Positions 3,029 through 25,991 are shown, counted from the first letter of the stretch. The stretch is 64,000 nucleotides of DNA from an uncultured Candidatus Saccharibacteria bacterium (GCA_964650255.1 CAZYQT010000001.1:39964-103963), one strand, 5' to 3'. The notes: generated by a model not told the origin, from the sequence alone. Numbers and translations: made by a program.

Positions 3029-3029
3029 A

Positions 3030-3464: not shown

Positions 3465-3515
3465 TACTATTTCCTAGTATTTCTTAAAGATTAGAATCCT
3501 GCAGTAGTAGCTTAT

Positions 3516-3562: not shown

Positions 3563-3625
3563 ACTCAGTAATTATATCCCACTATACCCCATGAAGCAAT
3601 GCGAAGTGAAACACTGACAAACAAA

Positions 3626-3651
3626 AAAACCCTTTTGTTTGAAAGGGTTTT
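3626..3651 (-). terminator. Rho-independent terminator hairpin (AAAACCCTTTT / AAAGGGTTTT) with flanking A/T runs, downstream of the SpoU-family gene
   Basis: A 10-bp stem with a short loop, followed on the minus strand by a T-tract. It sits between the 3741..4217 gene stop and the mraZ promoter region. Confidence 0.5.
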
Positions 3652-3740
3652 CGCATGTGGAACAGAAGTGGGATGAGTTATCCCCGAATCACCTATTTTC
3701 TAGTTAAGTGTTGTTAAGTTAAGTGAATTAATCATCTATA

Positions 3741-5623: not shown

Positions 5624-5628
5624 GCAGA

Positions 5629-6015: not shown

Positions 6016-6043
6016 ATTGATATTATAAGCTTTTTTGGAAAAG

Positions 6044-8037: not shown

Positions 8038-8048
8038 GGCATAGTATG

Positions 8049-9716
8049 TTAAACAAGCGGCAAACTAAAGCTGAAAGTTGAGCCCATATTTTCCCCAGCG
8101 CTTTCAGCCCAAATTTCGCCGCCGTGCGCTTCCACAATCCCCTTACTTACCACCAAACCCAGCCCTGTCCCCTTGCGAGTGGAGTCAAAACTCTTTAATT
8201 GTTTAAATTTAGAAAACAGCACACTCAAGTCTTCGCGACTCACGCCAATCCCAGAATCTTTAATTGTAATAACTGCCCGATTAGCTTTGGTTTCTACACT
8301 TAAATTAATTTCGACTTTGCCGCTATCCGTATATTTAATAGCATTGCTAAGCAAATTATTCATTACCTGCGAAATGCGAACTTTGTCGAAAGATAGCATT
8401 TGTTTTTCTGGACCAATATAGTTCAAAGCCAAGTGTTTGGCCTCTGCTTGCGGTTGATAGGTCTGCAGCTCATCTTTAATGCAGGCTACTATGTCGTTTT
8501 GCTGAGAGTTGATATCAAACTTGCCGGCTTCAATTTTGGCAACATCGAGTAAGTCATTCACCAGTTCCAGCATGTTTGTGGCAGCATCATCAATATGAGC
8601 AATACTCTCTTTTATTTTTGCTGGATCGGTCTGCGCTTTGGCATCGGCTAAACCTTTCATGAGTGACTCGCTAGACCAGCGCACGGCAGTAAGCGGCGCG
8701 CGCAGCTCATGCACCATCATTGCCGTGAATTCCTGGCGGAGCTTTTCCAAAGACTTTTCACTGGTGACATCGTGCAAAATTACCGCCACACCGCGGTGCA
8801 CACCGGTCTTGTCGCGCACTGGGGTTAAGGTAATATCCATCACCTTGTCGTGCAAATATACCTCAGCGATTGTTACGGGCATATTTTTTGCCAAGGCTTC
8901 ATCAATTTTAATGCGCAAATCCACCTTGCCAGCCAAAGCATCCATAATATCAAAGGTGGTCACATTTTTGTTCACTGGCAATTGCAACATGTCCACAACC
9001 GCCGGGTTGGAAATTACCAACTGATACTCCAAATCCACCATAAACACGCCGTCTGTCATTGCCGCAATAATGCCGGAAAGTTTGCCTTTTTCGTTCTCGA
9101 GCACGGCTTGCAGCTGAGATACTGCGAACGCCGCCTGATTAGTAATCGTATAAACTACACCAGCTTGATCTTTGCCAAACTGATTCGGGGTAGATGAGGA
9201 AATGTTAATCATTCCCAGCAGTTGTCCTTCGATAATGACAGGAATATTTAGAAAAGATTCCACGGATGTGCTAAGGCTGTCATCTAAAATTGCACCGCTC
9301 ATGCGTTCATCAATTTTTTCTAAAGACACCTCCTGATTACAAAGCGTGGCAGTAGCGGCTTGCATTTTTTCTTTGACCTGAGAGATGAACGCGTGATTTA
9401 CGCTGTGGTGGACGTGGCATTTAAAAACGATGTTTTTCGGATCAGCATAAAGCATGAACGACACGGTTTCATAATGCAACAAATAACCAATGCTGCCGGT
9501 AACAATTTCAATAATCTTACTAGTGTCGAGCGTGTAACCAAGGCGTTCGTTAATTTCTTGAAGCACCTGAATCTGGTACATGCGTTGCTGAAGCTCTCTG
9601 GACCTAGAACTAACCCCTTCGACTACGGCACGTTCTTGGCTACGTTTGCGAAAATAAAAACCCGCTACCACGCCAAGTAAAAGAAAATCTGCAATGAGTA
9701 AAATTACTATGGTCAT
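8049..9716 (-). CDS. Sensor histidine kinase (N-terminal TM, GAF/PAS-like sensory region, HisKA + HATPase_c)
   Basis: H-box MMVHELRAPLTAV. N-box NLLSNAIKYT. G-boxes DSGIGVS and GTGLGLVVSKGIVEAHGG. N-terminal TM helix. Confidence 0.85.
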   Translation of the reverse strand: MTIVILLIADFLLLGVVAGFYFRKRSQERAVVEGVSSRSRELQQRMYQIQVLQEINERLGYTLDTSKIIEIVTGSIGYLLHYETVSFMLYADPKNIVFKCHVHHSVNHAFISQVKEKMQAATATLCNQEVSLEKIDERMSGAILDDSLSTSVESFLNIPVIIEGQLLGMINISSSTPNQFGKDQAGVVYTITNQAAFAVSQLQAVLENEKGKLSGIIAAMTDGVFMVDLEYQLVISNPAVVDMLQLPVNKNVTTFDIMDALAGKVDLRIKIDEALAKNMPVTIAEVYLHDKVMDITLTPVRDKTGVHRGVAVILHDVTSEKSLEKLRQEFTAMMVHELRAPLTAVRWSSESLMKGLADAKAQTDPAKIKESIAHIDDAATNMLELVNDLLDVAKIEAGKFDINSQQNDIVACIKDELQTYQPQAEAKHLALNYIGPEKQMLSFDKVRISQVMNNLLSNAIKYTDSGKVEINLSVETKANRAVITIKDSGIGVSREDLSVLFSKFKQLKSFDSTRKGTGLGLVVSKGIVEAHGGEIWAESAGENMGSTFSFSLPLV

Positions 9717-10042
9717 TGACTGGTAGATTTATCAGTTAAGGTACAAACTAATTTGATGTTCGGAATTGGCTGATTGTATTCCAAAAAAATATCCGGATAA
9801 TTGTCCAGAAGTAAGCGGAATTGCAGAAGGGCCACTGGCTCAGACAGCTCTTGATACATGGCAATTAGCTTTTGTAAGACTGGCAGGGGTGCGGTGTTAA
9901 TGGCTGTGACTTCGCCGGTTTCTGAAACTTCCAAGCCTGGCACACTAGCAGCGATTTCTTTGGCAATGTTGGTACCAAAAATAACCATGTGCCGACGCAC
10001 TAGCTCGGTTAAAAACTTCTTATATGTTTGAATTGGAACCAT
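9713..10042 (-). CDS. Hypothetical protein (first gene of the kinase operon, ATGA overlap with the kinase)
   Basis: 109-aa ORF with a 4-nt overlap to the downstream kinase start. No recognisable motifs. Confidence 0.4.
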   Translation of the reverse strand: MVPIQTYKKFLTELVRRHMVIFGTNIAKEIAASVPGLEVSETGEVTAINTAPLPVLQKLIAMYQELSEPVALLQFRLLLDNYPDIFLEYNQPIPNIKLVCTLTDKSTSQ

Positions 10043-10210: not shown

Positions 10211-11560
10211 CTATTTAAACCCCGCCAACCCGCCGCGCATGAATGTGGTTTTGAATTCTTTCATACGGCCAAAGCCTACTGAGTCGCGAATAATGTCGCG
10301 CGCAAGGAATGCGGGCACGCGTGCCACTGTAAAATCATCATACTTTTGATTAATTTTATCCATAGCTTGCATTAGCTGGGAGCGAGTTTTGGCCCGATCT
10401 ACTGTTTCAAACAAATTCCCCTGCGTTACTTCTGGCACAAGGCCAAACACAGTCACGCCAATCAGGTAAGATTGTTTTTCAATTTCTTTAAGCTGTCCGC
10501 TTTGCTTCAGCAAACTCATGGCCTCCATATAAATTTCCCGGCCATCTTGCAGATAATGATCTAACTTTGCGCCTTTGCCCACATGCATGCGCTCAGGATC
10601 ATGCACATGCACGTGCACACCATTACCCATAACGCCATTTACGCGAAGACGAGCACCAACCATTTCCGACAACTTGTACAGCACAGAGCGCATTACATTT
10701 TGCTGGCGATACTCCTGCGGAATTGTATACATATGACCAATTGATTTCATAGTGCCGTCTGCGGCATCAGTTTGCTCAAACTCTTCTTTCCAGCTACCTT
10801 CGAGCTGGCCCATGCTGTGCAAATGATACCCTTGAATCCCGTAATGGGCTACAAGTTTACTCAAAGGATAATCACGCAAATCTTTAAGCGTACGAATGCC
10901 TAAGGTGCCAAGGTTGCGCTTCATACGGCGGCCAATACCAGGAATATCTTCTAGGTCGAGACGATAATACAACGCGTCCTTATCTTGCGGCCGCACCACA
11001 ACTAAGCCATCCGGTTTTTGTAGGTCTGATGCAATCTTCGCCACTAACTTGCTATAACTAACACCAGCACTACAGCGAATCCAGTCCCCGACTTCGGTCT
11101 TCATGCGGTACTTAATTTCCTGCACAATCTTCACTGCCTCAAACCACGGATCAGTTGGTACCCACTCACCAGCAGAATTCTTCTCACGGATGTTGCACGC
11201 TTTAGTTAAATCCAAAAAGGCTTCATCAATACTATACTTTTCCACCTTGTCTGTATAATCCTCAAACACTTTTAAAAACCGAGCCGTGTAATAACGATAG
11301 CGCTCCGGATGAGTTTTAGTAAGATGAATCTTCGGGTACAACTTGCGCGCCTCCCAAACTGGAGTACCAGTTTTAATGCCCCATCGTTTCGCCTCAACAC
11401 TAGCGGCAATAATGATGCCGCCCAAATGTTCGCACACCCCCACAGGCTCACCACGCCAAGCTGGGTTATCTTGCTGCTCAACCGTAGCAAAATAACTGTT
11501 CATATCGATGTGGGCTATAACAGGTGTTTGAGCTGATTCAATTGGATAATCTCTAGACAT
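10211..11560 (-). CDS. dinB: DNA polymerase IV (Y-family, DinB)
   Basis: IAHIDMNSYFATVEQQDNPAWRGEPVGV and SIDEAFLDLT are Y-family catalytic motifs. Start placed at the internal ATG (MSRDYP...) near 11560. The ORF-track start at 11611 is probably too long. Confidence 0.9.
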   Translation of the reverse strand: MSRDYPIESAQTPVIAHIDMNSYFATVEQQDNPAWRGEPVGVCEHLGGIIIAASVEAKRWGIKTGTPVWEARKLYPKIHLTKTHPERYRYYTARFLKVFEDYTDKVEKYSIDEAFLDLTKACNIREKNSAGEWVPTDPWFEAVKIVQEIKYRMKTEVGDWIRCSAGVSYSKLVAKIASDLQKPDGLVVVRPQDKDALYYRLDLEDIPGIGRRMKRNLGTLGIRTLKDLRDYPLSKLVAHYGIQGYHLHSMGQLEGSWKEEFEQTDAADGTMKSIGHMYTIPQEYRQQNVMRSVLYKLSEMVGARLRVNGVMGNGVHVHVHDPERMHVGKGAKLDHYLQDGREIYMEAMSLLKQSGQLKEIEKQSYLIGVTVFGLVPEVTQGNLFETVDRAKTRSQLMQAMDKINQKYDDFTVARVPAFLARDIIRDSVGFGRMKEFKTTFMRGGLAGFK

Positions 11561-11603
11561 TAAAGTGATAATTTGGCTTATTTTAATGATTATTTTACTA
11601 TAC

Positions 11604-11632
11604 TTGACCAATTTATAATATTATGATATAAT
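11604..11632 (+). promoter_or_regulatory. Sigma70-like promoter for avd: TTGACC (-35), 17-nt spacer, TATAAT (-10). GGAGGA RBS follows at ~11655
   Basis: ttgaccaatttataatattatgatataat lies upstream of the ATG at 11671 in the divergent dinB/avd intergenic region. Confidence 0.5.
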
Positions 11633-11670: not shown

Positions 11671-12159
11671 ATGTTTAGAACATGTTGCGCGCATCACGCC
11701 AATGTAGACGCTCAGGACGAGCAAATGCAGATGGACGAAATGCAAAGAGTTGATTGGCTGATTGAAAACGGCCACGTCAGCTATCACCCCCCCCCGACTC
11801 GGAATTTAACTCAACCTCCTTTATTTCACGCATTGTATCAATTGTATTGTTCATGGTATATTCGCTGTCAGACTCTGCCCAAAAAAGACCGCTTTGCTAT
11901 TGGACATAGAATTGAAAATTTATTACTAGATATGATCGTGAGTGTAACAGGTGCCTATCATACTAAAGATGTTTCTCGGAAAAAAGAACTTCTGTCCGAT
12001 GCTAACCTTACTTTGGAATCGCTTAAGGTAGTAATGAGACTGGCTAAGGATGTGCACGCTTTAGAAAAGCGCTGGTATATTAAATACGAAGCTCAGTTTC
12101 AAGAAATTGGTAAAATGCTAGGAGGCTGGATATCCAGCCTTACAAAAACAAACAGATAA
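11671..12159 (+). CDS. avd: DGR accessory variability determinant (Avd)-like four-helix-bundle protein (the family also annotated as 23S rRNA intervening-sequence protein)
   Basis: The C-terminal 110 aa align by eye with Bordetella phage BPP-1 Avd. LPKKDRFAIGHRIENLLLDMIVSVTGA corresponds to IPRKHGVAREMFLKCLLGQVELFIVAG. EIGKMLGGWISSL corresponds to EVGRILGSWIARV. The gene lies 35 nt upstream of a DGR template repeat. Confidence 0.75.
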   Translation: MFRTCCAHHANVDAQDEQMQMDEMQRVDWLIENGHVSYHPPPTRNLTQPPLFHALYQLYCSWYIRCQTLPKKDRFAIGHRIENLLLDMIVSVTGAYHTKDVSRKKELLSDANLTLESLKVVMRLAKDVHALEKRWYIKYEAQFQEIGKMLGGWISSLTKTNR

Positions 12160-12601: not shown

Positions 12602-14686
12602 CTAACGGACTGACACCACGCCGAGACCGTCGCTCGAAAGCCCCGGATCCCACCTGTCGACACTGGCACCCCTGTCACCGGCCCCACCGAAAAACACAAG
12701 CAAGCCAAAAGAAGTGCGAGAATTAGTCCAATCATACATAGTTTCCAGCATTCGTTCATCGCTATTTTTATATCTAATAGCAAAATCATACAAAGCTTCT
12801 GCTGCATTTCTACGGTGATTCTGGTTAATTTTTAATTCAGCTAAAGCTTTTGAAGCGGCTTGCCAGTCTTTATCCATAAGCTTTCTAATTTCCGTTAACT
12901 TCTCGTCAGTTACCTCTTTAGCTTCTGCTTCGCTTAAAGAATCTACTGTTTTTAAATAATCTCGTAGTACTGCTGTCTGTTGTATATAATCTTTTGAGGT
13001 TGAATTATCAATTACTTCCTGACTTACCAAAGCCCAACCTTCTCTAACAGGTTGCTTTTTAAAGAAATCTTCACCCTCATACCAATCTGTATCATATAGT
13101 GGCTTACCGTCTTTGTCTTTAAAAACTTCCTCTAATCTTTTATTTATATTTTCCATACTTGAGCTTCCTGATATTGCATATCTGAGAACCAGCATTTCGC
13201 CTTTTGCTTTTGCTCGCTCAAGCTCCGCATTACTATAAGGGACGGTACTAAATTCTGCACTCAAACTACGTTTAGTTAAGAAGGCCTCATTAAAGGCCTC
13301 AACACCGTAAAAATTCTCAGCCATAATTTCTTGAGCTTTTTCATAAGTAGTCGCACCTTTTTCGATCCTCTCAATCCTTTCGGAAGAAGATTCCTTTTCG
13401 AAAGTATCTATTACATCCGAAAAGTCGGTGTTCTCAGCCTCATTAATTTCTTCAGCAAGGCTCTTTCTTTTTGATTCTTCTGTTCGAGGTCTATACTCAA
13501 CTGTTCTGATGATTTCTGAAAGTTTATCTTTGTCTACTTTGCTTTCTAACTTATTTGCATAATAGTATTGCAACGCTTGCTGAAAGGTTTCGTTTATATC
13601 ACCGTTATAGAATTTCAAAATGAAATCCCGAACACGGCGAGGTTCCATACGATCATCATAAGTAAACGGCTGGGGCTGATCTTCAGCGATTTGTCGATTC
13701 TTAAGAAGCTCTTTAGCTGTTTTATGGAACTCTTCATACTTAGCCAAAATTTCTGGCAAACCCGGAATATCCTCAAGCTGTTCTGGAGTAAGAGCAGTAT
13801 CTCGAGAGTTTAAGTAATCTTTTTGTGGTACTTCTTGAGATTCCTTATCAATACCAAATAATGACTTAGTTGAATGTGAAAAAGTACTACTTGGAAGCTC
13901 TGAAGCCGCTTTTTTATAGACCCAACGACGTAACTGAGCAGGATCCATTGGCTCACGACCAATATATCCTTTCCCGGGTGGGTTCATTAAAGCGACAATT
14001 TTAGTACGCTCTTTATTTACTGACACTTCCTCGGAAGCATCTTCGGAAAGAACAACCTCCCCACCACGTTCAAGGGCATCTAATACTTCGTGCAAACGAA
14101 TAGCAATATTAGGCGCAGCAGCATTGTACTCATCTAAAATAATAACCTTAACTTTCCCCTTTTCCTGTCTTAGGCCAGATGTAACTTTACCGTCTGCAAA
14201 AATATATTCCGGGTCTTCTTCGCCTCGTTTATGAGGATTAGGAATATACCGCCCCATTAAATCTTCTACGTCCGTAGCACCATTTAAGTTTATGTAATGA
14301 ACTTCATAGCCAAGCTCACTTGCCATTTTTCTAACAGTAGTTGTTTTACCGATTGAAGTACCACCCTCAATAAGAATAGGTTCACCGTTTAAAAATGCTA
14401 CTGCTAAATCTCTTTGCATAGGCAAAGATAGTTCAGTGTCATTTATAAAGTCTTCATATTGTTCTCTCTTAGGAACATAGGCGCTTCCTTTAACTGTAGC
14501 TTTTTCTAAATTTACACCTAAATACGAAACCGAGGTTTCGGTTTCCTTAACTGGCTTTTGGTCTTCTAAGACCTCAGAGGTTTCAACCTTAGTCTCTGGC
14601 TCTAGCCCCTCTCCCATTTCTTCAGGAGTCAAAGCATTAAATTTTGTTTCAGATGATCCTGGCATAGATTTACACTTGGTATGCAA
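12602..14686 (-). CDS. DGR target protein: MoxR-like AAA+ ATPase (AAA_5-type) with a long C-terminal extension ending in the variable CLec-like region
   Basis: Walker A GGTSIGKTT and Walker B VIILDEYNAA lie in the N-terminal third. The C-terminus carries the VR, with a YDWTNS...VVSVR pattern reminiscent of DUF1566/FGE-type DGR variable regions. No signal peptide. An internal ATG (MPGSS, ~14665) may be the true start. Confidence 0.75.
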   Translation of the reverse strand: MHTKCKSMPGSSETKFNALTPEEMGEGLEPETKVETSEVLEDQKPVKETETSVSYLGVNLEKATVKGSAYVPKREQYEDFINDTELSLPMQRDLAVAFLNGEPILIEGGTSIGKTTTVRKMASELGYEVHYINLNGATDVEDLMGRYIPNPHKRGEEDPEYIFADGKVTSGLRQEKGKVKVIILDEYNAAAPNIAIRLHEVLDALERGGEVVLSEDASEEVSVNKERTKIVALMNPPGKGYIGREPMDPAQLRRWVYKKAASELPSSTFSHSTKSLFGIDKESQEVPQKDYLNSRDTALTPEQLEDIPGLPEILAKYEEFHKTAKELLKNRQIAEDQPQPFTYDDRMEPRRVRDFILKFYNGDINETFQQALQYYYANKLESKVDKDKLSEIIRTVEYRPRTEESKRKSLAEEINEAENTDFSDVIDTFEKESSSERIERIEKGATTYEKAQEIMAENFYGVEAFNEAFLTKRSLSAEFSTVPYSNAELERAKAKGEMLVLRYAISGSSSMENINKRLEEVFKDKDGKPLYDTDWYEGEDFFKKQPVREGWALVSQEVIDNSTSKDYIQQTAVLRDYLKTVDSLSEAEAKEVTDEKLTEIRKLMDKDWQAASKALAELKINQNHRRNAAEALYDFAIRYKNSDERMLETMYDWTNSRTSFGLLVFFGGAGDRGASVDRWDPGLSSDGLGVVSVR
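12607..12722 (-). repeat. DGR variable repeat (VR) forming the last ~39 codons of the target gene
   Basis: Counterpart of the TR, with substitutions only at TR-adenine sites (10 A>G, 6 A>T, 2 A>C) plus 1 G>T. The two copies end together in a GC-rich stretch GGCGTGGTGTCAGTCC (IMH-like) right at the stop codon. It encodes ...YDWTNSRTSFGLLVFFGGAGDRGASVDRWDPGLSSDGLGVVSVR*. Confidence 0.75.
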
Positions 14687-15086
14687 CTCCCGTATTCATA
14701 CGGATACTGTATCCTTGATTTTCCAATACTAAAAGATTTCGTTTTGTTATTAAAGCTATGACTGATAAATTCCTGTAGTCTGGAATAGCGATTTGGGATT
14801 GCATTTGAGTATGATCAAAAATTTCCACTTGCCCTGTGGGATATTGCATTAGAAAATCATACACATTTTTATTGATTGTACCGCTGAAAGTAAATAACAA
14901 TTTACCTGGCTTATCCATTCTATTTAACAACTCTGAAGTTCTATCTACTTTAATGAAGCCGACTTTCTTTAAAGATTGTTGTAGCTCTTGCACCTGGGTT
15001 TCATCTTCAGCGATGATTAAACCCACTTCCTTTTGACCAGAAGCTATACTCAAAAATTTCTTTAATTCGTCTCTTGTTTGTTCCAT
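14670..15086 (-). CDS. Hypothetical protein (138 aa) between the VWA and AAA+ genes
   Basis: ORF overlapping the upstream and downstream genes by a few nt (operon-like). No confident motif. Confidence 0.4.
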   Translation of the reverse strand: MEQTRDELKKFLSIASGQKEVGLIIAEDETQVQELQQSLKKVGFIKVDRTSELLNRMDKPGKLLFTFSGTINKNVYDFLMQYPTGQVEIFDHTQMQSQIAIPDYRNLSVIALITKRNLLVLENQGYSIRMNTGVAYQV

Positions 15087-15103
15087 AATATGCTTTAAAT
15101 ATA

Positions 15104-17296
15104 CTAAAATTTGTTGTAATTAGCAATTACCTCTTCAATTAAACCAGCCAATTTCCCAGCCATTTCCTCAATATTTACATTGGCCAGACTGTTTGGGTAA
15201 TACTTAGAAACATGTCCAGTACCAGAACCAATCCCCAAGCCAATTAACTTTTGATCGGTTTCCTCTATTACCTTTTTTATCATTCCTTTTAAGGGATACT
15301 GAGAACTTGGATGCTTAGACGATTCAACCGGCTCACCGTCAGACAAAACAATTAGAAACTTTTGATCCACTTTTTGTTTAGCCAAACGCTCTGAAGTTTG
15401 TTCTATAGCCCAACCATCGTCATTGTATGCAGCACCTCGACCCCGTACCTCGCTTAATATTTGTCCCATATTCTCTCGAATTTCTTTCGAGATAGGTTGT
15501 CCAAAATTCTGGTATTCATATATCTTGTCGTTGAATCCTAAAACTTCCAAATTTATTGATAAGCGATTCAAAACTTCAGTTAGTACAATCACTGCTTTGA
15601 AAGTTTCTTCTATTTTTTCACCTGCCATAGAACCTGAAAGATCAACTAATAAAGAAATAGCATAATCTTTTTCTTGAGGGAGTTCCCGTTTTTGCCAAGC
15701 CCGACTTTCCATGGCCGGTACGTCTTTGGCTTTTTCCTGAATACGGCGTTTAATGTCTATACGTTTGCCAGATTTGTGTCCGCCTTCCCAACCGCGCGCA
15801 CGACGCGCCACAAAGATGTCGCGCAAATCTTGCTCGAGTTTGTCTATAATAGGTAAAACTTCCCGTCTATACTGTTCATATATATTGGCATCTTTTTCCA
15901 TTTCCTTTGCCAACATGTCGCGATATTTTTGAATTTCAGATTCATCTATTTCATGACTTTTCCTTTTCTCTGACTTTGGAACGGTTTCTAATTCATTTAC
16001 AGGTTCAAATTCACTAGATTCTTTTTTGCCGCTTTTCCGTTCCTCAGCTTTTTTAGGATTATCCGATAGCTTCCCTTGAAGCTCTTCATTTAGCTCTTTT
16101 TCAAACTGATCCAAGGCAGCCTGAGCTCGCTCCGCAAGTTCCTGCTTTTGAGCTTCCGGCATTGATTCAATATACTCCTTAATTTTCTGCTTTAATTCTT
16201 CTGACAATGAATCGAGGTTAATTGGAGCGCCCTTTGATTTCTCGGATTCACTTGAGGATTCGCCATGCTCTTTCTGTTCTCCTTCAGTGCTTTCTTGGCC
16301 TTGTTGTTCTTGATTCTTTTGCTGCTGCTTTTTAATAGCTTCCTCAATAGCCTCTTCTAATTGTTGTTGTTGTTCAGGAGTCAATTTATCTTTCAACTCT
16401 TGAGGCAAACCCTGGCCAGAGCCACCCTCTCCTTTGCCCTGAGCATCTTTCATCATTTCCTGCATTTGCTGATCCTTCATATCCTCTTCGATCAACTTTT
16501 TGAAATCAGGCCAAACTCTATCACGGTTAATTTCGTAACTCTTTTTAGCGTATTGAGTGATTAATTCTTCACTGCTGTCGGCTTCCTGGCGAGACGGATA
16601 TCGCCACCAAGAATCTTGAGCCGCAGTCAAAGTTTTATTGACCACTTCTTTAACATCGTCTGGTAAATCTTCGCTTAATTCAAATTCTTCGCCCTTAGTT
16701 TCCTTAAACCACTGCTTGATATATTCAAAACCGGCCTGCATAAAACGAGGCTTATAACCCAGCTCATCGGTAGCAGTATTTTTTGCTTTTGCCTCAAAAT
16801 CTAAATCTTGCTCATAGGCGATCCCCATTTGCTCCTTAAACTTTGGATAGCTTTCAGCCACAAAATTATTATCCCGTGGGTCTTCAATGGCATTCATCAT
16901 AAAAGCAAACCCGGGTTCTTGCCATTGCTCGAGAGGAATAAAATCTGCTCTTGAAATTCTTCTATGACCCCCTTCATGTGAAATAACAAACCGCAAATAA
17001 TCCATAGGTTTGTCCAGCAAGTCCTGTGGGTCTATCTTAATAATATTTTTCTCAAAATCCCAATGCCAACCTTCACCTGGCTCATTGAGTTTTACCGGAA
17101 TCCGAAAATCCTTGCCAATAAAATAAGCAAGGGAAGATAGGATTTGCTGTTTGTATTTTATTTCAGACTGTTGTTCTGGAGTAAAGCTAGATAAAATCTT
17201 TTGCTCTTTATTCTCTCTTATAGCTTTATAATTAGGTCTAGCTTCTACCACCATACTAGCCCGGCCTATATCTGAAGTGCTTTCAAAATTCTTCAT
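15104..17296 (-). CDS. VWA-domain protein with an N-terminal HExxH metallopeptidase-like domain (DUF2201-type MoxR partner)
   Basis: SHEGGH (HExxH) near the N-terminus. Long K/E-rich low-complexity coiled region. C-terminal VWA with MIDAS DLSGSM. Genomic pairing with a MoxR-like AAA+ ATPase. Confidence 0.7.
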   Translation of the reverse strand: MKNFESTSDIGRASMVVEARPNYKAIRENKEQKILSSFTPEQQSEIKYKQQILSSLAYFIGKDFRIPVKLNEPGEGWHWDFEKNIIKIDPQDLLDKPMDYLRFVISHEGGHRRISRADFIPLEQWQEPGFAFMMNAIEDPRDNNFVAESYPKFKEQMGIAYEQDLDFEAKAKNTATDELGYKPRFMQAGFEYIKQWFKETKGEEFELSEDLPDDVKEVVNKTLTAAQDSWWRYPSRQEADSSEELITQYAKKSYEINRDRVWPDFKKLIEEDMKDQQMQEMMKDAQGKGEGGSGQGLPQELKDKLTPEQQQQLEEAIEEAIKKQQQKNQEQQGQESTEGEQKEHGESSSESEKSKGAPINLDSLSEELKQKIKEYIESMPEAQKQELAERAQAALDQFEKELNEELQGKLSDNPKKAEERKSGKKESSEFEPVNELETVPKSEKRKSHEIDESEIQKYRDMLAKEMEKDANIYEQYRREVLPIIDKLEQDLRDIFVARRARGWEGGHKSGKRIDIKRRIQEKAKDVPAMESRAWQKRELPQEKDYAISLLVDLSGSMAGEKIEETFKAVIVLTEVLNRLSINLEVLGFNDKIYEYQNFGQPISKEIRENMGQILSEVRGRGAAYNDDGWAIEQTSERLAKQKVDQKFLIVLSDGEPVESSKHPSSQYPLKGMIKKVIEETDQKLIGLGIGSGTGHVSKYYPNSLANVNIEEMAGKLAGLIEEVIANYNKF

Positions 17297-17386
17297 AGAA
17301 ATACTAAAATATTCTATAACTTAACTAAATTATGCCACAAATTGCTATGTTTTTCAAACAAAACACAAACTTGATATACTGACTAT

Positions 17387-17596
17387 ATGGGAATATTTGT
17401 GATTATTATGCTTGTTTACTTCCTAGCTGGAATTTTAATGGCATTATGGGACTTTAGAAAGATTCTATTTAAAAACCCGGGCAATCAAACTGCCAGCAGT
17501 CTTTTCATTGAACCACCAAAATTTTTAGATAACCTCTCTATCAGTACAGCGTTAACATTCATCCTAATTTGGCCAGTTAAATTATTGCTCAAATAG
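17387..17596 (+). CDS. Small membrane protein (hypothetical)
   Basis: 69 aa, two hydrophobic helices. First ORF of the AT-rich plus-strand block. Confidence 0.3.
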   Translation: MGIFVIIMLVYFLAGILMALWDFRKILFKNPGNQTASSLFIEPPKFLDNLSISTALTFILIWPVKLLLK

Positions 17597-17647
17597 CCAG
17601 AAAGAATTTCTCTTTTAAATAAAAGGTAAAGTAAGTATAATTGTTAT

Positions 17648-18076
17648 ATGAAATATATTTTCCTCGCTATTGCCACAATAGCCTTACTGGGAGCTAGTTG
17701 TAATTCTAGCACCAAACAAACTAGTGATTCCTTTGAGCGCAATTTAAAGTGCAAAGAAATTGCCACCCAGTTAGATCAGCAAAAAAGAGAAGATGAACAA
17801 AAATCAAAAGATGCAAAGCTTCTCGTTTTCACCTCTTTTGATAGCAGCGAAACTAAATATAGTGAGAAGTTGAATACATGTCTATATTCCTACACTCTAA
17901 ATATGTACGGAACAGGTGGGGTGCCAAATTCTCAAAGCAGATATCTGATTGATAGCTTAACCAACGAGGTATTGGCTCAATATACTACATCTGACGCGCA
18001 ATCTACCCAAGAAAGAACTGACGCACAAAAAGCATTCTATGATAAATACAGCGAACTATATTTAGGAACTAAATAA
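17648..18076 (+). CDS. Putative lipoprotein
   Basis: Signal peptide plus lipobox LLGASC. 142 aa, AT-rich codon usage. Confidence 0.5.
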   Translation: MKYIFLAIATIALLGASCNSSTKQTSDSFERNLKCKEIATQLDQQKREDEQKSKDAKLLVFTSFDSSETKYSEKLNTCLYSYTLNMYGTGGVPNSQSRYLIDSLTNEVLAQYTTSDAQSTQERTDAQKAFYDKYSELYLGTK

Positions 18077-18083
18077 AATCAAA

Positions 18084-18785
18084 ATGCTATTTAAAAACTT
18101 CTTTCGTAAAGATTTAAACTTAAAGAATCGGTGGTGGCATCGGTTACTACTCGTACTTTTCTTCGTTTCATTCGCTGTCAGCTTATTGTATGCAACATTT
18201 CACACTGGACAACCAGACAGATATCGCCAGGTTAGTAGTCTGAAAGATAGGATGACTAATAATTTAACAAAAATTGGAGATTTAGTTAAACCAGGAGAAA
18301 GAATCGGTGAAAACGAGAATAGAATCAATGATGATCTCTACTATAAAAACGGAGGCTTTTTACTAAGTCAAAATATTTATTGTGCAAAGAATGTTACAAA
18401 CCATGTTGATGACTTTGCCAAGTCTAATGGAGCATCACATTTTAAAGGCAATGATGCTATTATTATGGCTAGTTCACAAGTATCATCCGATGAGTTCAAA
18501 CACTACCTTACTTCAGAATCAGGTAACTGTATAGAAATTGCCAATCTGAGTGATTACGAAAATAAGAACATAATATGGTCTGGAATAGACAAGGTTGTGG
18601 AAAGGTCTGTATTCACAAACTCTATGGATGTATGGACACTAGACCATACGAAAACAAACCTTAATAGGATATTTAATCCCGCCTATCTTGGGATATTAAT
18701 ATTATTTGGAATTATTATGATTCTATACTACAAAGTATTGCTATATATAATTTTCGGTAATAATAAACAATATGAAAATAAATAA
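18084..18785 (+). CDS. Membrane protein with N- and C-terminal TM helices (hypothetical)
   Basis: 233 aa. 8-nt gap to the upstream gene. Confidence 0.45.
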   Translation: MLFKNFFRKDLNLKNRWWHRLLLVLFFVSFAVSLLYATFHTGQPDRYRQVSSLKDRMTNNLTKIGDLVKPGERIGENENRINDDLYYKNGGFLLSQNIYCAKNVTNHVDDFAKSNGASHFKGNDAIIMASSQVSSDEFKHYLTSESGNCIEIANLSDYENKNIIWSGIDKVVERSVFTNSMDVWTLDHTKTNLNRIFNPAYLGILILFGIIMILYYKVLLYIIFGNNKQYENK

Positions 18786-19008
18786 AGATAGAATAATTAT
18801 TATAGTTTTAATACTCTTACTAATTTGGTTCGCCACTGCCATTATTAGATTAGAAAATTATCATTATGCCGTTCAGGTAGGAATGTGTGAAAATACTACT
18901 GAAATTGAACCATTTAAACAGCGTATGGAATTAGAGGATTGCTTAAATCATACCCAAACTAGAACGAGTCCCATCTGGCACTTATTCTATGGGTTGAGAA
19001 TATTTTAA
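18772..19008 (+). CDS. Small membrane protein (hypothetical)
   Basis: 78 aa with an N-terminal TM. Overlaps the upstream gene by 14 nt. Confidence 0.35.
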   Translation: MKINKDRIIIIVLILLLIWFATAIIRLENYHYAVQVGMCENTTEIEPFKQRMELEDCLNHTQTRTSPIWHLFYGLRIF

Positions 19009-19012
19009 ATTT

Positions 19013-19459
19013 ATGTGGTTTTTGTATGTAGTTGGTGTTGTTATAATCATCAGTATCATTCAATGGTTAATTAACAAACGCCGAGAAAAGATTAGAGAAC
19101 AAGTTGCTCACGATCTATTCGATAAATCAGACACAGAAACAATACTAGAAAATTACAAAAATAAACTTTCTGCAATCCTAATTACAACACCAAGAGAAAT
19201 TCCTAAGAGGATATCTTCTTGGGAACTAGCTCGCCTACCTAAATATGCTGCTAAAATAGCTGGGTCTGATTGTCCAAAATGTGAAAGCGGTTATTTAAAA
19301 GTAATATATACATACAACGGTTATGGTAGATTGCCATCCGTGTTTAGTTGCAGTAGTAAAGAATGTAATTATATTATTGGTTTAAAACAAGCCAAAGTGG
19401 AATATGAAAAAAATAACATCAATTCTTTTGCAAAAGATTTCAACCAAGTTTATCCATAA
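19013..19459 (+). CDS. TM-anchored protein with a C4 zinc-ribbon-like motif (CPKC...CSSKEC)
   Basis: 148 aa, N-terminal TM. Cys pairs are spaced as in zinc ribbons. Confidence 0.4.
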   Translation: MWFLYVVGVVIIISIIQWLINKRREKIREQVAHDLFDKSDTETILENYKNKLSAILITTPREIPKRISSWELARLPKYAAKIAGSDCPKCESGYLKVIYTYNGYGRLPSVFSCSSKECNYIIGLKQAKVEYEKNNINSFAKDFNQVYP

Positions 19460-20584
19460 ATGAGCTACTATAATAAAATTAAACTGGAGCTAACAAATCT
19501 GATAGGCTCTTTTAATTCGGCTAATAAACAGCTAGACGACAAATTGGTACTTCTCAAGCAAGAAGAAGACTCACTACAGAGAGAGAAAGATAAATATAAC
19601 CAGATAAAAAAGGAGGTGTTGCAGTTAGCTTTAGAAAGACAGAGGGGCTTTCCTACCTTAGCTAAAGCCTATGATGAATATTTTGCCTTACAAGATAAAT
19701 CTCTCATAGATTTTCTTAGATACAAGGATAGGCCAGCTCCAAGCGCTAGTGACATTGTAAAGGAGTATTCTAGAATAAAGAGAGAAGCTTTGAAAGACAA
19801 GAAAATCTTTCAATATTTGATTGAATACTACGAATCAATTTGCCCATTTCTTATTGAGTTAAAAGAAGAGGAATTATCTGATATAACTGAAGAAGATAAA
19901 CAATATCTGGTTGAGTATTCTGAAGAGGAGCTGGAAGATGAGGTTACAAAATACCTAACCAAAGAAGAATATAGGAAATTACCTACTGCCCAGAGAAACC
20001 AGCAAGCATTGGATAGATATTGGAAAAGGCCCAAATCTAAATGGCATATAGGGAAAATATACGAACGTTATGTAGGGTACTTATTTGAACAGCAAGGATA
20101 TCAAGTAGATTATTTTGGAATATTTAAAGGCTTGGAAGATTTAGGTAGAGATATCATAGCAACTAACAAGAATGAGATTGTCATTATTCAATGTAAAAAT
20201 TGGTCACAATTTAGGACAATATACGAAAAACATATTTTCCAATTTTTTGGCACTGTGTTCCAATATCGTGACGAGAATCCAAATAAAAAAGTTAGGGCTA
20301 TTTTTTATACCACTACCCAACTTTCTGATTTAGCGAGAAGATTTAGCAAAGAGCTAGGCATAGAATTACAAGAACAATTCAAATTCGATAAAAACTACCC
20401 TAGCATTAAATGTAATATCAACAAGCTAACTAAAGAAAAAATATACCACTTGCCTTTCGACCAAAAATACGACCACACTAAAATAACTCCAAAAACAGGA
20501 GAGCTATATGTTGCAACTGTAAAAGAAGCAGAGGATGCAGGTTTCAGAAGAGCTTTCCGTTGGAAAGGAGAATCGAATAAATAA
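19460..20584 (+). CDS. Mrr-like restriction endonuclease (PD-(D/E)xK, Mrr_cat) domain protein with an N-terminal coiled coil
   Basis: IGKIYERYVGYLFEQQGYQVDY...GRDIIATNKNEIVIIQCKNW matches the Mrr catalytic-domain pattern (G..E...LF...G+.V....G.D+.....+...IQCK.W). Confidence 0.6.
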   Translation: MSYYNKIKLELTNLIGSFNSANKQLDDKLVLLKQEEDSLQREKDKYNQIKKEVLQLALERQRGFPTLAKAYDEYFALQDKSLIDFLRYKDRPAPSASDIVKEYSRIKREALKDKKIFQYLIEYYESICPFLIELKEEELSDITEEDKQYLVEYSEEELEDEVTKYLTKEEYRKLPTAQRNQQALDRYWKRPKSKWHIGKIYERYVGYLFEQQGYQVDYFGIFKGLEDLGRDIIATNKNEIVIIQCKNWSQFRTIYEKHIFQFFGTVFQYRDENPNKKVRAIFYTTTQLSDLARRFSKELGIELQEQFKFDKNYPSIKCNINKLTKEKIYHLPFDQKYDHTKITPKTGELYVATVKEAEDAGFRRAFRWKGESNK

Positions 20585-20592
20585 TAATCTAT

Positions 20593-21246
20593 ATGACAAA
20601 CTTAGACGAATCCAATATTGATACTGACTACCCTGAGTCAGTTAAAAAAATAATTGAGGAAATAAACAAGCATAGGATAAAAGCTTTTGAAAAAACTCTT
20701 CCTGAAGGACTAACCTATGAAGATGTTAAGAGTGAGCTCGTAGAAACGTTGAAAGTGTATCATACCTGGCTAGACCATTGCTTCAAATACATTTTTGATA
20801 GTGAGAAGGTAATCGGACAACAGGTCAAAGAGATTAAATCAAAATTTGAGCAAAATGTACTTGAAGAGTTATTTAATAAGGAGCTTACAATTATACGGTG
20901 TGCTTTTGTCTATGCCTGGCTACAAAACTTTGAATTGACAGATTACGGAAAGAAAAATAATCAAGATACTTTTAAGTCACTATATAATCATTATAATCAT
21001 TCGTTAGAAAATATACTTAAATTAAATGGTAGACTAGAGGATAAAAATTGGATATTAGAAGGGCTTAATAAGTACACTTCCCCTACTAAATTTAGTCATG
21101 ACGATTTTATTGAAAAGGCTGCGGAAGGAGTAGCTAGAATCCCTTTTGAAAGCACAGAAGGCCGGCTCGGAGGTGGGCTTTATGATGGACTAACGCTCCT
21201 GATACAAAATACAATACAAAATGATAAGACCACCTTACTTGAATAA
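20593..21246 (+). CDS. Hypothetical protein (217 aa), last gene of the AT-rich plus-strand block
   Basis: ORF contiguous with the Mrr-like gene (9-nt gap). No recognisable motif. Confidence 0.4.
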   Translation: MTNLDESNIDTDYPESVKKIIEEINKHRIKAFEKTLPEGLTYEDVKSELVETLKVYHTWLDHCFKYIFDSEKVIGQQVKEIKSKFEQNVLEELFNKELTIIRCAFVYAWLQNFELTDYGKKNNQDTFKSLYNHYNHSLENILKLNGRLEDKNWILEGLNKYTSPTKFSHDDFIEKAAEGVARIPFESTEGRLGGGLYDGLTLLIQNTIQNDKTTLLE

Positions 21247-21279
21247 AAAAAGAGCTAAGCTGCCCTATTTGCATTGTAT

Positions 21280-21440
21280 TTAAGTTGATTTCTCCCACTT
21301 TCTTTGGACTTTTGGTCTTGGTTTTGGTATTTAGTTTTGGGGTATTTAAGTCAGTAGTTTAGTCTTGGTTTTAGGGTTTAGTTGGTTTTAAAGATATTTT
21401 TGGTTTTTAGTTAGATATTGTGTACCTTGTAGTACGGTGT
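21280..21440. repeat. GT-rich low-complexity tract (degenerate TTTTGG / TTTAGTTTTGG-like units)
   Basis: tttggacttttggtcttggttttggtatttagttttggggtatttaagtcagtagtttagtcttggttttagggtttagttggtttt... no ORF, strong strand asymmetry (G+T on the plus strand). Confidence 0.45.
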
Positions 21441-21759
21441 CGTTCAGTGGATTCTCTGGTGAGAGTAATAGTCAACGGTTTGGCTATTAACATTGAGTAG
21501 TAAAAACAGTAGTTTTAGCTTCTCAACTGGTTGAACCCTAGTTCAACTAGTTCTTCCACCAGTTCCTCATACACTGAACACCTCCATCATATCTGAAAAA
21601 TATCCTTTGTCAAGCGGAATTTTTGCACTAGCTAAAACTAAGAGCTTTTGTTAAAATAGGTTTTAGCTGCGTCGTAGAGATGCACCACCTTGAAAAAGGA
21701 TCATGTGCATGGTATGATGTGCGTGACAACCGAGCTCAAAAGCCACATTGGCTCGAAAT

Positions 21760-21790
21760 AAAGCCGCCCGAATGGGCGGCTTTATCATTT
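21760..21790. terminator. Bidirectional rho-independent terminator AAAGCCGCCC-GAAT-GGGCGGCTTT with a flanking T-tract
   Basis: A perfect 10-bp GC-rich stem, A-run upstream and T-run downstream. Lies just past the stop of the minus-strand gene 21821..22195. Confidence 0.55.
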
Positions 21791-21820
21791 AAAAATTTCC
21801 ATGCTAAAGAAGGTGCGCAC

Positions 21821-22195
21821 TTACATCTTCGCATTTCCCCTGCGCACTTCAACGTGCAAGGCTTTGTGGAAAAGGATTACTGACAAAACAACAGCCAAAT
21901 AACTTAACCAAAAATAAACATGATGGTACATTTCGCGGCCGATCAACACTGAAGTAACGGCCATGTCAACCAAAATCATGATGATCAGCCATACTATGGC
22001 CGTGAAAAAGCATTCCAAATAATTGATTACCCCCATGCGACGAATCACTGCTGTGGTAATCATTATCAATACAACAAAAAATAAAATCTTGACTACCAAG
22101 TTATCGATATCAAGATAATTTATAAAAATGACTTTGGTTAAAACAAAAAGCACCTCGCTAACAATTGTTCCAATGACTAGCGAAGCGATATTCAT
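21821..22195 (-). CDS. Polytopic small membrane protein (hypothetical)
   Basis: 124 aa, 3-4 TM helices. Confidence 0.4.
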   Translation of the reverse strand: MNIASLVIGTIVSEVLFVLTKVIFINYLDIDNLVVKILFFVVLIMITTAVIRRMGVINYLECFFTAIVWLIIMILVDMAVTSVLIGREMYHHVYFWLSYLAVVLSVILFHKALHVEVRRGNAKM

Positions 22196-22737
22196 TAGAC
22201 TGAAGTTGCTTTAGCGCGCTTAGTAGTTTTACGAGCAGTTGTTTTTCTAGCAGTATTCTTGCGCGTGGTTTTTTTCTTGGCTGCTGGAGTAATAAAATCA
22301 TCAAAACTCCAAGCTTGGCTTTCGGCTACCGGGACTTTTACTGTTGATACAGAAGCTGCTGGCGCTGGAGCCATAAAAGAATTCAAACTTTCCATGCGAG
22401 AGCTGGCTTTAGCCTTTTTGCGACCACGCCAATTATGTGGCACAAAGCCATGGAACAATCCAGCTGGAGCTTGGGCATTCGGGCCATAAACCAAAGCGTA
22501 CCATTCAAGACCCAACACAACTCCATACCAACCGCCCAAGAAAAGCATCAACAACATTGTCGTAAAGTCTAAAGCTGGGATTGCGCCTTGCGGCATGCCA
22601 AAAGAGTAAGTATCGTAGTCAACAGTTAAAAGTAGGTCATACAAAACAAATACAGAGCGGTGCAACATACCAAAAAGGACCATGCCGAGAATTGAACAAA
22701 GGAATAAATAAAGCGCTTTAATTGTGGTTTTTTTCAT
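22195..22737 (-). CDS. Membrane protein with a basic C-terminal tail (TTRKNTARKTTARKTTKR)
   Basis: 180 aa, N-terminal TM helices, Lys/Arg/Thr-rich repeats at the C-terminus. Confidence 0.45.
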   Translation of the reverse strand: MKKTTIKALYLFLCSILGMVLFGMLHRSVFVLYDLLLTVDYDTYSFGMPQGAIPALDFTTMLLMLFLGGWYGVVLGLEWYALVYGPNAQAPAGLFHGFVPHNWRGRKKAKASSRMESLNSFMAPAPAASVSTVKVPVAESQAWSFDDFITPAAKKKTTRKNTARKTTARKTTKRAKATSV

Positions 22738-24668: not shown

Positions 24669-25991
24669 ATGAAACCATCTACTCGCTACACTCTTATTGC
24701 TGTTGGCTTTGTTGTATTTTTGATTTTGGCCCCTCTTTTAGTCTTGTACGTTAGTGGCCGAACTATTAACCTTGATGGTAAAGAAAGCAGTGCTACAGGA
24801 ATTTTAGACGCCAAAAGCAATCCGACAGGAGCAAAACTTTTTATCGATGGCAAAGAGCACAGTTCCACCCCTGCGATCGCGCGATTTTTGAAACAAGGAG
24901 AATATCAATTTACCTTAAGCAAAGAGGGTTATTTTGATTGGACCAAGCGGTTACCGATTGAGGCGGGTAAAGTTACTTATGCGCAAGAAGGTGTAACTGA
25001 AGTACAACTTTTGAAGAAGAGCGAACCAAAAGTATTGGTGCCACAAGGAGTATCAAGTTTTGTCATAATGAACGATGTCTTGTGGTTTGTTAATGGCAAC
25101 AGAGTTGTAAGAGCGCCGTTTAATAATCCTGCTGATCAAACAGTTATTCAACTTAATTTTCATCCTACTATCCTTACAGAGCTGCGAAACAGGCGACATA
25201 TTTACTTAGGCAACAACTCCATACTAGATACTCAAACTCAAGCTTTAGTTAAGCTGACCTTACCTAACACGGAATACATTGCTCACCCATGGGACATTGC
25301 TGTCTCCCCTAACAATGTAATTTTGTTTTTGGGCGGCGATGGCAATCTATACGCCCACGACCCAGGTGCTCAAAAAAATCGGCTGATCAAAGAAAAGGTA
25401 TTCGCATTCACTATGGAAGATAATACGGGCTACATTATAGATGACCAAGCTCGTAACCATTACGAAGATAGCAAATCAAATATCTCTAGCGCGTTCTGGG
25501 ATGGTAGTAATTTTCAAGACTATCAGATTATTTTAAGCGGGGCCTATGGCACACAACTGTATATTACTGACAACAAAGAGTTGTTCTGCAATTGCGCTGG
25601 CAAGTTAAGTCGAGTAGGCCAAAGTTTAGAACCGCTGGCGCAAAACGCTGATGCCTTAAACGTATTATTGGATTTAAAAACTAATGAGCTATCATTCATA
25701 ACCTCTGGCAACGAACTGATGTTTTACAACTTCCTCAGAGCCAAACCACAATTGCTCACTCGCGGCGGCTTAACCCCGCAAACAGCTTTCTTAGTTCGGT
25801 CCAGCATTGGTTACGGATTCATAGGAACTCAATCCGGCCTTGAGGCAATTGAAATTGATGCACGCGATAAACCAAATCGGTATCAACTATTAAACGGCAA
25901 ACAGGTGTGGCAGATCGCTATTACAGATAATCAAAAAACCATCATTGCTCTGCAAGATGGCGCTTTGGTCAGCGTTGATATTAGGAACTAG
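24669..25991 (+). CDS. PEGA-domain membrane-anchored protein
   Basis: N-terminal TM, then GAKLFIDGKEHSSTPAIARFLKQGEYQFTLSKEGY, which is a typical PEGA-domain pattern. An extended -10 TGCTATAAT lies at ~24649-24657. Confidence 0.55.
   Translation: MKPSTRYTLIAVGFVVFLILAPLLVLYVSGRTINLDGKESSATGILDAKSNPTGAKLFIDGKEHSSTPAIARFLKQGEYQFTLSKEGYFDWTKRLPIEAGKVTYAQEGVTEVQLLKKSEPKVLVPQGVSSFVIMNDVLWFVNGNRVVRAPFNNPADQTVIQLNFHPTILTELRNRRHIYLGNNSILDTQTQALVKLTLPNTEYIAHPWDIAVSPNNVILFLGGDGNLYAHDPGAQKNRLIKEKVFAFTMEDNTGYIIDDQARNHYEDSKSNISSAFWDGSNFQDYQIILSGAYGTQLYITDNKELFCNCAGKLSRVGQSLEPLAQNADALNVLLDLKTNELSFITSGNELMFYNFLRAKPQLLTRGGLTPQTAFLVRSSIGYGFIGTQSGLEAIEIDARDKPNRYQLLNGKQVWQIAITDNQKTIIALQDGALVSVDIRN

Follow-up and report, generated by a model that had tools for sequence, protein, structure and literature searches.

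A candidate membrane-tethered Mrr-type nuclease cassette in a variable genomic site of a Saccharibacteria genome

Introduction

A nuclease held at the membrane has been studied experimentally in the Shield system, in which ShdA, a membrane-anchored PD-(D/E)xK nuclease of the RmuC type, is sufficient alone for phage defence, lowers transformation efficiency and is not clonable without its anchor, which appears to limit its toxicity (PMC10270631). Here we report on a pair of adjacent genes, g5 and g6, found in a stretch of 64,000 nucleotides (the window) from an uncultured Candidatus Saccharibacteria bacterium (GCA_964650255.1, CAZYQT010000001.1:39964-103963; source sample SRR8893623). The pair lies within a block of seven plus-strand open reading frames (ORFs), g1 through g7, and encodes a small protein with a predicted transmembrane helix and a zinc ribbon (g5) and a nuclease with an Mrr catalytic domain, Mrr_cat (g6). 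We favour, with moderate confidence, the reading that g5-g6 is a mobile, membrane-tethered, solitary restriction-type nuclease cassette that sits in a variable genomic site and acts in a Shield-like mode.

The resemblance to ShdA lies in the combination of a membrane anchor with a cytoplasmic PD-(D/E)xK nuclease as a single effector, and in residence within defence islands, the anchoring of g6 by g5 being a prediction. The two differ in that the ShdA nuclease is RmuC whereas g6 carries Mrr_cat and matches neither RmuC (Pfam, E<=0.1) nor a PADLOC model; in that the anchor of the g6 family is mostly a separate zinc-ribbon protein and no accessory genes like ShdB-E accompany it; and in range, ShdA being found in Pseudomonas and g6 in the candidate phyla radiation (CPR), Bacteroidota and archaeal metagenome-assembled genomes (MAGs). 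Shield is the nearest experimentally studied analogue by likeness of design, not a system to which g5-g6 belongs.

Mrr-family Type IV restriction endonucleases provide a second comparison. Like them, g6 scores above the Pfam threshold for Mrr_cat with its D...QxK residues intact, is solitary in having no cognate methyltransferase, and has homologues that NCBI labels 'restriction endonuclease'. Unlike them, it has no Mrr_N domain, carrying instead a conserved helical N-terminus of ~190 residues together with a so-called sunset domain; it is predicted to be tethered to the membrane via a partner or via fused helices; and the restriction models of PADLOC miss it. The missing neighbouring methyltransferase likewise separates g6 from Type II restriction-modification (RM) systems. 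A third group, the NERD and DUF2726-type nucleases, combines a restriction-endonuclease fold with a topoisomerase-I C4 ribbon and transmembrane segments and is functionally uncharacterised. The g5-g6 pair unites the same three elements, but places ribbon and anchor on a separate protein and uses Mrr_cat as its nuclease. What is known, then, is the catalytic family and the 'restriction endonuclease' label of the homologues; the membrane-anchored architecture, the topoisomerase-type ribbon partner, the conserved N-terminus and the sunset tail are undescribed in PADLOC and the searchable literature. Indeed, no description of a g5-g6 cassette was found in PADLOC or in the searchable literature on the sunset domain or on defence systems that combine Mrr, a zinc ribbon and transmembrane segments.

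Results and Discussion

g6 encodes an intact Mrr-type nuclease with additional domains

An earlier note, made from the sequence alone, had recognised an Mrr_cat nuclease pattern in g6 and had named loss of the catalytic residues as an observation that would speak against its reading of the block. In Pfam, Mrr_cat (PF04471) was matched by residues 201-303 with 44.2 bits against a cut-off of 21 (E = 2.4e-11), and an alignment of 46 family sequences contained 98 invariant columns, including E202, D227, D231 and Q244-C245-K246. The D...(Q/E)xK variant of the PD-(D/E)xK site is typical of Mrr enzymes, and its D...QxK form is invariant in all 46 homologues. The pattern was thus borne out, catalytic residues included. 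Further towards the C-terminus, residues 316-365 match the NCBIfam sunset domain (E = 1.1e-6), and NERD was matched below the Pfam threshold (E = 0.013).

The AlphaFold2 model of g6 (mean predicted local distance difference test score 73.8) consists of two very long N-terminal helices forming a coiled coil (3-87 and 94-138), an alpha/beta core (194-304) and a small, beta-rich C-terminal domain. In a Foldseek comparison of the model with the Protein Data Bank (PDB), matches were confined to the core and comprised MspJI, XisH, EndoMS/NucS, Card1/Can2 and McrC; among viral models, phage 'restriction endonucleases' were matched. The N-terminal helices gave no informative Foldseek match. Similarly, residues 1-200, where the model shows long helices only, matched no Pfam or NCBIfam family, the Mrr_N winged-helix domain included. 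In the PDB, nothing meaningful was found by sequence or profile with g6, the alignment (A1) or the sunset domain alone as query, and matches to designed trefoil-knot proteins and LpxK were dismissed as noise.

The family of g6 is large (~5,000 homologues) and sharply bounded. The best 120 database matches of g6 were full-length and 61-88% identical, and those that carried a name were Patescibacteria 'restriction endonucleases'. Relatives of the sunset domain also occur elsewhere: a stand-alone ORF of 107 amino acids (L133, 2887-3210; fetched loci are given by such handles) on the Rhizobium beringeri conjugative plasmid pRlX2 is 38% identical to it over 69 residues, and the domain matches a PHROG family annotated 'membrane associated protein' (phrog_21287, E = 1.3e-6).

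A small zinc-ribbon membrane protein is the recurrent partner of g6

The earlier note had treated all seven ORFs as one module. We fetched 42 other loci with g6 homologues and searched them with all seven block proteins by tblastn; only g5 and g6 recurred, and no PADLOC system was matched, so the seven-gene module did not survive this comparison. When neighbouring ORFs were clustered, 28 of 39 loci had a g5-type gene immediately 5′ of the nuclease gene. A stricter count, restricted to 31 non-redundant loci with readable N-terminal context, gave a separate transmembrane partner directly upstream in 24, where its stop codon lies within a few bases of the nuclease start, and a C4 ribbon in 21 of these partners. 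At one locus (L036) the partner bears the ribbon and its hydropathy falls marginally under the threshold.

In the family alignment g5 proteins share a transmembrane helix, a conserved EKIRDQVA (EKIRxQVA) helix and a CPxC...GCxxYPxC ribbon. The cysteines of g5 itself, C87, C90, C113 and C118, form a topoisomerase-I type C4 zinc ribbon, and homologues are publicly annotated with PF01396 (Zn_ribbon_Top1). Long and short g5 subtypes pair with g6 proteins of differing N-terminal length.

Where g5 is missing, the nuclease often carries hydrophobic helices of its own. For example, five loci (L030, L031, L034, L035 and L037) have no g5 and encode nucleases of 401-417 amino acids in which 1-3 N-terminal hydrophobic helices stand in place of the first ~55 residues (three of the five were scored by script and the other two by eye), and homologues on Hymenobacter plasmids (42% identity; for example WP_196294777) are likewise without g5 and start with a transmembrane helix. 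Because g5 adjoins g6, or is replaced by helices fused to the nuclease, the conserved unit appears to be a membrane anchor plus an Mrr-type nuclease, encoded by two genes or by one, and membrane association is the predicted common feature of the g6 family. The g6 protein of the window has no transmembrane helix, and its anchoring is deduced from the adjacent g5 and from the fused homologues.

The remaining ORFs of the block are unlikely to be parts of the same system

It could be argued that all seven genes form a single membrane defence or toxin system, with sensing or translocation falling to the lipoprotein and small membrane proteins and the nuclease serving as effector. The genes are co-directional, g2 through g7 are closely packed, low GC is common to the block genes, and five of the seven products are predicted membrane or envelope proteins. 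Even so, we regard such a system as very improbable. Beyond the recurrence of only g5 and g6 in the 42 loci, the closest relative (L002, g6 88% identical) has g5-g6 alone, between thioredoxin and hrcA genes, and is followed by a gene unrelated to g7; g7 is an ORFan, with no homologue but itself among 5.8 billion proteins; and g3 homologues occur singly. In fact, close packing is the rule across the whole window, and the apparent seven-gene 'system' is an artefact of dense CPR gene packing.

The public gene caller skips g1 on the identical contig, and g1 is therefore doubtful as a gene. No relatives of g1, g2 or g4 were found by tblastn in ~130 fetched loci, and g2 and g4 look to be island-specific. 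The g3 family comprises 108 representative clusters (E<=1e-3, aligned full-length) of membrane proteins of ~225 amino acids, whose members occur on their own, as between recO and ileS (L130) and in L131; judged from these contexts, the family seems to have no link to the nuclease. Only g6 gave real matches in PADLOC, PHROGs, NCBIfam and Pfam; g1-g5 and g7 gave no significant match in any of the four. Downstream genes vary in nearly all loci, and a conserved third gene behind g6 was ruled out. The five ORFs g1-g4 and g7 are small membrane or orphan genes that evolve fast and have no relation to g5-g6 beyond a common site and, probably, a common transcript.

Table 1. Positions of the block, its boundaries and other features, counted from the first nucleotide of the window.
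Feature	Position	Strand	Description
Y-family DNA polymerase (IMS) gene	10211-11611	-	neighbour of the bAvd-like gene, away from the AAA_5/VWA block
bAvd-like gene	11671-12159	+	Pfam, 6.9e-16; accessory protein of diversity-generating retroelements
VWA/138-aa/AAA_5 triad	12602-17296	-	VWA (CobT_C), 138-aa protein and 694-aa AAA_5 (MoxR-like) ATPase
VWA (CobT_C) gene	15104-17296	-	left boundary of the block; Pfam
g1	17387-17596	+	69 aa; two hydrophobic segments (hydropathy)
g2	17648-18076	+	142 aa; putative lipoprotein, signal peptide ending LLGAS/C (cleavage at the slash)
g3	18084-18785	+	233 aa; transmembrane helix at either end (two hydrophobic segments)
g4	18772-19008	+	78 aa; one N-terminal transmembrane helix
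g5	19013-19459	+	148 aa; N-terminal transmembrane helix and C4 zinc ribbon
g6	19460-20584	+	374 aa; Mrr_cat nuclease, soluble
g7	20593-21246	+	217 aa; soluble ORFan
gene-free stretch	21250-21800		~570 nt; GT-rich degenerate repeats and several hairpins, within 21290-21760
hairpin	21761-21784		AAAGCCGCCC-GAAT-GGGCGGCTTT; perfect, 10 bp, GC-rich, A- and T-run flanks
124-aa gene	21821-22195	-	right boundary of the block (ORF list); the 124-aa and 180-aa membrane-protein genes span 21821-22737

The block is compositionally foreign and occupies a variable site

In the ORF list of the window the seven plus-strand ORFs (17387-21246) are set between minus-strand genes. By windowed GC the block lies at 0.32-0.35 against ~0.42 elsewhere in the window. 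The comparison of individual genes takes ORFs of at least 120 amino acids, which leaves out g1 and g4; g2, g3, g5, g6 and g7 have a mean GC of 0.337 and a mean GC at third codon positions (GC3) of 0.29, and the remaining window ORFs 0.423 +/- 0.033 and 0.398 +/- 0.050, so that the block ORFs lie ~2.6 (GC) and ~2.1 (GC3) standard deviations below them. The block is therefore compositionally foreign, deviant composition being one mark of a genomic island.

These values agree with the earlier description of an AT-rich, plus-strand block of seven ORFs, as do hydropathy and motifs with the lipoprotein (g2), the membrane segments (g1, g3, g4 and g5) and the four ribbon cysteines of g5 that it had listed. 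Its statement that the flanking genes are all on the minus strand holds for the immediate neighbours, but 11671-12159 and 24669-25991, for example, are on the plus strand; and the gaps or overlaps of under 15 nt apply to g2 through g7, which overlap by at most 14 nt or are separated by at most 8 nt, but not to g1 and g2, which are 51 nt apart. It had also seen no tRNA or integrase, and our searches of the window for tRNA genes and serine recombinases were indeed empty. No Rfam family was found in the window either.

Comparison with related contigs revealed that the site itself is variable. The bAvd/AAA_5/138-aa/VWA block to the left of the island is kept at 74-88% identity in four contigs (L044, L045, L046 and L132; VWA identity 79-83%), and synteny with relatives breaks exactly at the VWA start codon. 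Beyond this junction, one relative (L132, VWA 83%, 514-5121) carries a controller-type helix-turn-helix (HTH) gene, DUF4357, two D12-class methyltransferases and RE_AlwI, which together make up a complete AlwI-type Type II RM system. In a second (L045, VWA 82%, 623-9855) a large serine recombinase comes first, with a methyltransferase and three large hypothetical proteins of 943, 678 and 382 amino acids behind it; the 943- and 678-amino-acid proteins were scanned and have no Pfam domain, and none is recorded for the third protein. A third (L044, VWA 79%) has unrelated genes. Since the cargo beside VWA differs in three relatives, the site is a hotspot at which defence and mobile cargo is found, and the block occupies this variable cargo site, variable occupancy being a further mark of a genomic island. 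On the right, the 124-aa and 180-aa genes adjoin MreB in L047 (MreB 86% identical) and thus belong to the MreB-side backbone; this contig, the only syntenic one from a MreB-anchored metagenome scan, stops 194 bp past the 124-aa gene.

Support for insertion therefore comes from the variability of the hotspot rather than from a clean empty site. Target-site duplications and conserved insertion sites were not seen, and a candidate attachment (att) pair, ATAACTTAAC(T/C)AAA at 17316 and 21899, was discarded because a 14-mer of this kind is at chance level in AT-rich DNA. The foreign composition, together with the different cargo at the same spot in three relatives, supports the earlier proposal that the block was acquired horizontally.

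These data also bear on the possibility that the block is native, its low GC stemming from the composition of membrane and Lys/Glu-rich proteins, and g6 a housekeeping nuclease of repair or recombination. Neighbouring genes are not free of low GC3 either, the AAA_5, 138-aa and VWA genes lying at 0.30-0.34, and the divergence series of g6 (88%, 80%, ... ~65%) is similar to those of VWA and MreB. We nevertheless consider this explanation scarcely tenable: GC3 is depressed too (0.29 against 0.40), other genes stand at the junction in three relatives, the most similar g6 (88%) lies at another locus in its genome, and the g6 family is rare across genomes.

The cassette is rare, patchy and shared across phyla

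A motif scan of 185,579 species-representative genomes (one genome per species), for which one motif was YEKHIFQF, nearly invariant in the family, detected g6 homologues in 35. Carriers were mostly Patescibacteria of several classes, and others included the cultivated Flagellimonas lutimaris and MAGs assigned to Methanomassiliicoccales, Nitrospinaceae, Syntrophaceae, Sedimentisphaerales and Acidobacteriota. Identity to carriers of distant phyla was 54-64%, some of the MAG contigs being possibly mis-binned. Four Hymenobacter plasmids bear a copy of the nuclease amid copper and arsenic resistance genes. Being rare, patchy, highly conserved and cross-phylum, the family has the signature of horizontal spread.

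The genes flanking the cassette vary from locus to locus, and in 34 of 36 loci the AT content of the g6 gene exceeds that of its surroundings, by a mean of 5.3 points. A large serine recombinase lies within 6 kb of the cassette in 10 loci, and an Xre-type HTH gene of ~67 amino acids stands directly 5′ of it in 7. HTH neighbours matched the 'Control_protein' models of PADLOC at up to 4.5e-18, and other neighbours matched mad3, mad8, AriA-like ATPases, nSTAND3, Fic/SoFic, REase_II and T5orf172. The cassette spreads by horizontal transfer, with serine-recombinase elements, plasmids and defence islands carrying it as cargo. The upstream HTH genes, like the HTH-led AlwI system at the same site in L132, recall RM systems with a controller (C-protein), but the window copy has neither an HTH gene nor a methyltransferase. 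Indeed, no methyltransferase was found in the block or among the 25 commonest Pfam families of 150 neighbours from 35 loci.

The nuclease is repeatedly associated with metal-resistance cargo on mobile elements. In the Hymenobacter plasmids L127/L128 the nuclease gene (7785-8981) has copper genes (P-type ATPase, cupredoxin and DUF305) on one side and ars genes on the other, and two P-type ATPases and a CsoR-type repressor come directly after the cassette in the CPR loci L003 and L004.

The family was not found by tblastn in the 50,697 phage genomes of INPHARED, nor in IMG/VR with query-specific or family-invariant motifs, and a phage origin of the cassette was ruled out. The same result enters into a second possibility, namely that g5-g6 is a selfish maintenance module of elements or plasmids, acting by post-segregational killing, entry exclusion or as a homing-type nuclease. 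A small upstream gene that abuts or overlaps the nuclease gene, as in type II toxin-antitoxin pairs, the frequent link to serine recombinases and plasmids, insertion contexts that are unrelated and in some cases without a recombinase, and strong conservation with a patchy distribution would all suit such a module. We think it unlikely, since the fused variants have no putative antitoxin, the anchor and zinc ribbon of g5 are unlike known antitoxins, neither target-site duplications nor conserved insertion sites were seen, and the family went undetected in the viral contigs and phage genomes searched, where free-standing homing nucleases abound. The nuclease also differs from toxins of type II pairs in occurring without g5 in at least five loci and on the Hymenobacter plasmids, and without any anchor in three more.

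The distribution is similarly informative about DNA salvage, in which a membrane-near nuclease with DNA-binding ribbon and sunset domains would turn imported DNA into nucleotides. CPR bacteria are unable to make nucleotides and account for most carriers, the nuclease is predicted to be membrane-proximal, and the strong conservation of g6 is more like that of a metabolic than of a defence gene; a possible role of CPR restriction enzymes in obtaining nucleotides has also been proposed (PMC12455944). However, a gene found in ~35 of 185,579 species representatives is rare even within CPR, carriers include free-living Bacteroidota (the Flagellimonas isolate and the Hymenobacter plasmids) and other phyla, and the contexts are recombinases, controller HTHs and defence-like genes, not competence or nucleotide metabolism. 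Salvage is accordingly an explanation to which we assign a low probability.

A possible mode of action

We return to the reading of g5-g6 as a membrane-tethered, solitary nuclease cassette. An intact Mrr-fold nuclease, two anchoring solutions and a ribbon of a type that binds single-stranded or duplex DNA point to a solitary tethered nuclease acting on entering DNA, as do the controller HTHs of some loci and the residence in defence islands, recombinase elements and plasmids. In the mechanism that we propose, g5 would be a small inner-membrane protein whose ribbon-bearing part is cytoplasmic and which would bind the variable N-terminal helix of g6, so that the nuclease is kept on the inner side of the membrane; transmembrane helices fused to the nuclease would do the work of g5 in other lineages. 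From there g6 might cut incoming phage, plasmid or transforming DNA, and tethering, helped in some loci by an upstream controller-type HTH, may spare the host chromosome. The pair would then be a restriction nuclease without a methylase, ShdA-like in action.

A defence-type role is, we infer, the best-supported function, with DNA as the presumed substrate of g6 in vivo. The earlier suggestion of a membrane-associated defence or toxin system with a nuclease effector is retained in this role and in the conserved membrane association, but not as a system of seven genes. More tentatively, g5-g6 might represent an undescribed and widely transferred system directed against mobile genetic elements, destroying DNA at entry in CPR bacteria, Bacteroidota and archaea, with the sunset domain as its DNA-binding tail; we consider this wider proposal possible, if short of probable.

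Several observations weigh against a tethered defence nuclease. No model of PADLOC-DB v2.0.0 significantly matches g5 or g6, the best match of g6 being PDC-M10B (E = 0.0048 over 37 residues), and the g5 of the window is itself below the Pfam threshold for Zn_ribbon_Top1. Three loci (L027, L028 and L032) lack a partner as well as a fused transmembrane helix, and a physical interaction of g5 with g6 is suggested by adjacency and complementary architectures only. The identity of g6 across CPR classes, 61-67%, is unusually high compared with that of defence genes, and g5-g6 has no linked methyltransferase or other device for telling self from non-self. The association with defence genes, with 150 neighbouring proteins from 35 loci matching 191 PADLOC families against 34 for 149 MreB neighbours, is clear as a difference but was measured against a crude control that represents a housekeeping rather than a random context. 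As to insertion, none of the VWA- or MreB-anchored relatives has an empty site with VWA directly beside the 124-aa gene, the short repeats on either side of the block do not exceed chance level as candidate att sites, and the window has no recombinase.

Should g5-g6 be a defence nuclease, it would be a second, evolutionarily independent case of the Shield principle, by which a membrane tether renders a promiscuous PD-(D/E)xK nuclease safe and useful, and would open a first route to the function of the sunset domain, which is widespread but unstudied, and of small membrane proteins with topoisomerase-type ribbons. Since homologues are present in cultivable Bacteroidota (Flagellimonas lutimaris A26-3 and the Hymenobacter plasmids), the hypothesis is directly testable. 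The cassette is of an ordinary kind, an accessory nuclease in a variable region, yet it is a well-defined, widely transferred and experimentally accessible candidate for defence. Patescibacteria thus have accessory nuclease cassettes in common with genomes placed in distant phyla (54-64% identity), which bears on the phage resistance and DNA exchange of these reduced epibionts. For annotation, the locus also counsels caution, as a densely packed, co-directional row of CPR genes is not necessarily one system.

Neighbouring features of the window

The triad to the left of the block (VWA, 138-aa protein and AAA_5) is 74-86% identical in four relatives and always stands beside the variable site. 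It gives a weak PADLOC match to mad8 (4.7e-5), and its VWA protein carries an HExxH-like 'SHEGGH' motif. In the vWA-MoxR ternary conflict systems as published, the gene order differs from that of the window triad (PMC7159879).

Beyond the triad lies the bAvd-like gene, and two relatives (L044 and L046) retain bAvd and an RVT_1 gene beside the same AAA_5/VWA block. No reverse transcriptase was found in the window, whose bAvd region looks like a decayed or rearranged diversity-generating retroelement; involvement of such an element in the seven-ORF block was ruled out, bAvd being present without a reverse transcriptase.

Downstream of g7, a gene-free stretch of a length unusual in a compact CPR genome begins. 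The GT-rich tract that had been noted behind the block was confirmed, with three degenerate 26-nt direct repeats (at 21311, 21358 and 21387) and a TTTTGG periodicity, and an independent Logan assembly of the same sequence breaks within it. The stretch gave no Rfam match above terminator-like noise and has no similar DNA in the fetched loci. The strong bidirectional terminator of the earlier note corresponds to a perfect hairpin of terminator shape, but its assignment to the block is doubtful: it is ~515 nt away from g7 and 30 nt beyond the stop codon of the 124-aa gene on the minus strand and, being nearer to the latter, may belong to the flank. The gene-free stretch as a whole gives a much more stable fold than shuffled controls (z = -5.05 on the plus and -4.27 on the minus strand), and it could be an RNA of a new type, a set of iteron-like sites or the remnant of an element.

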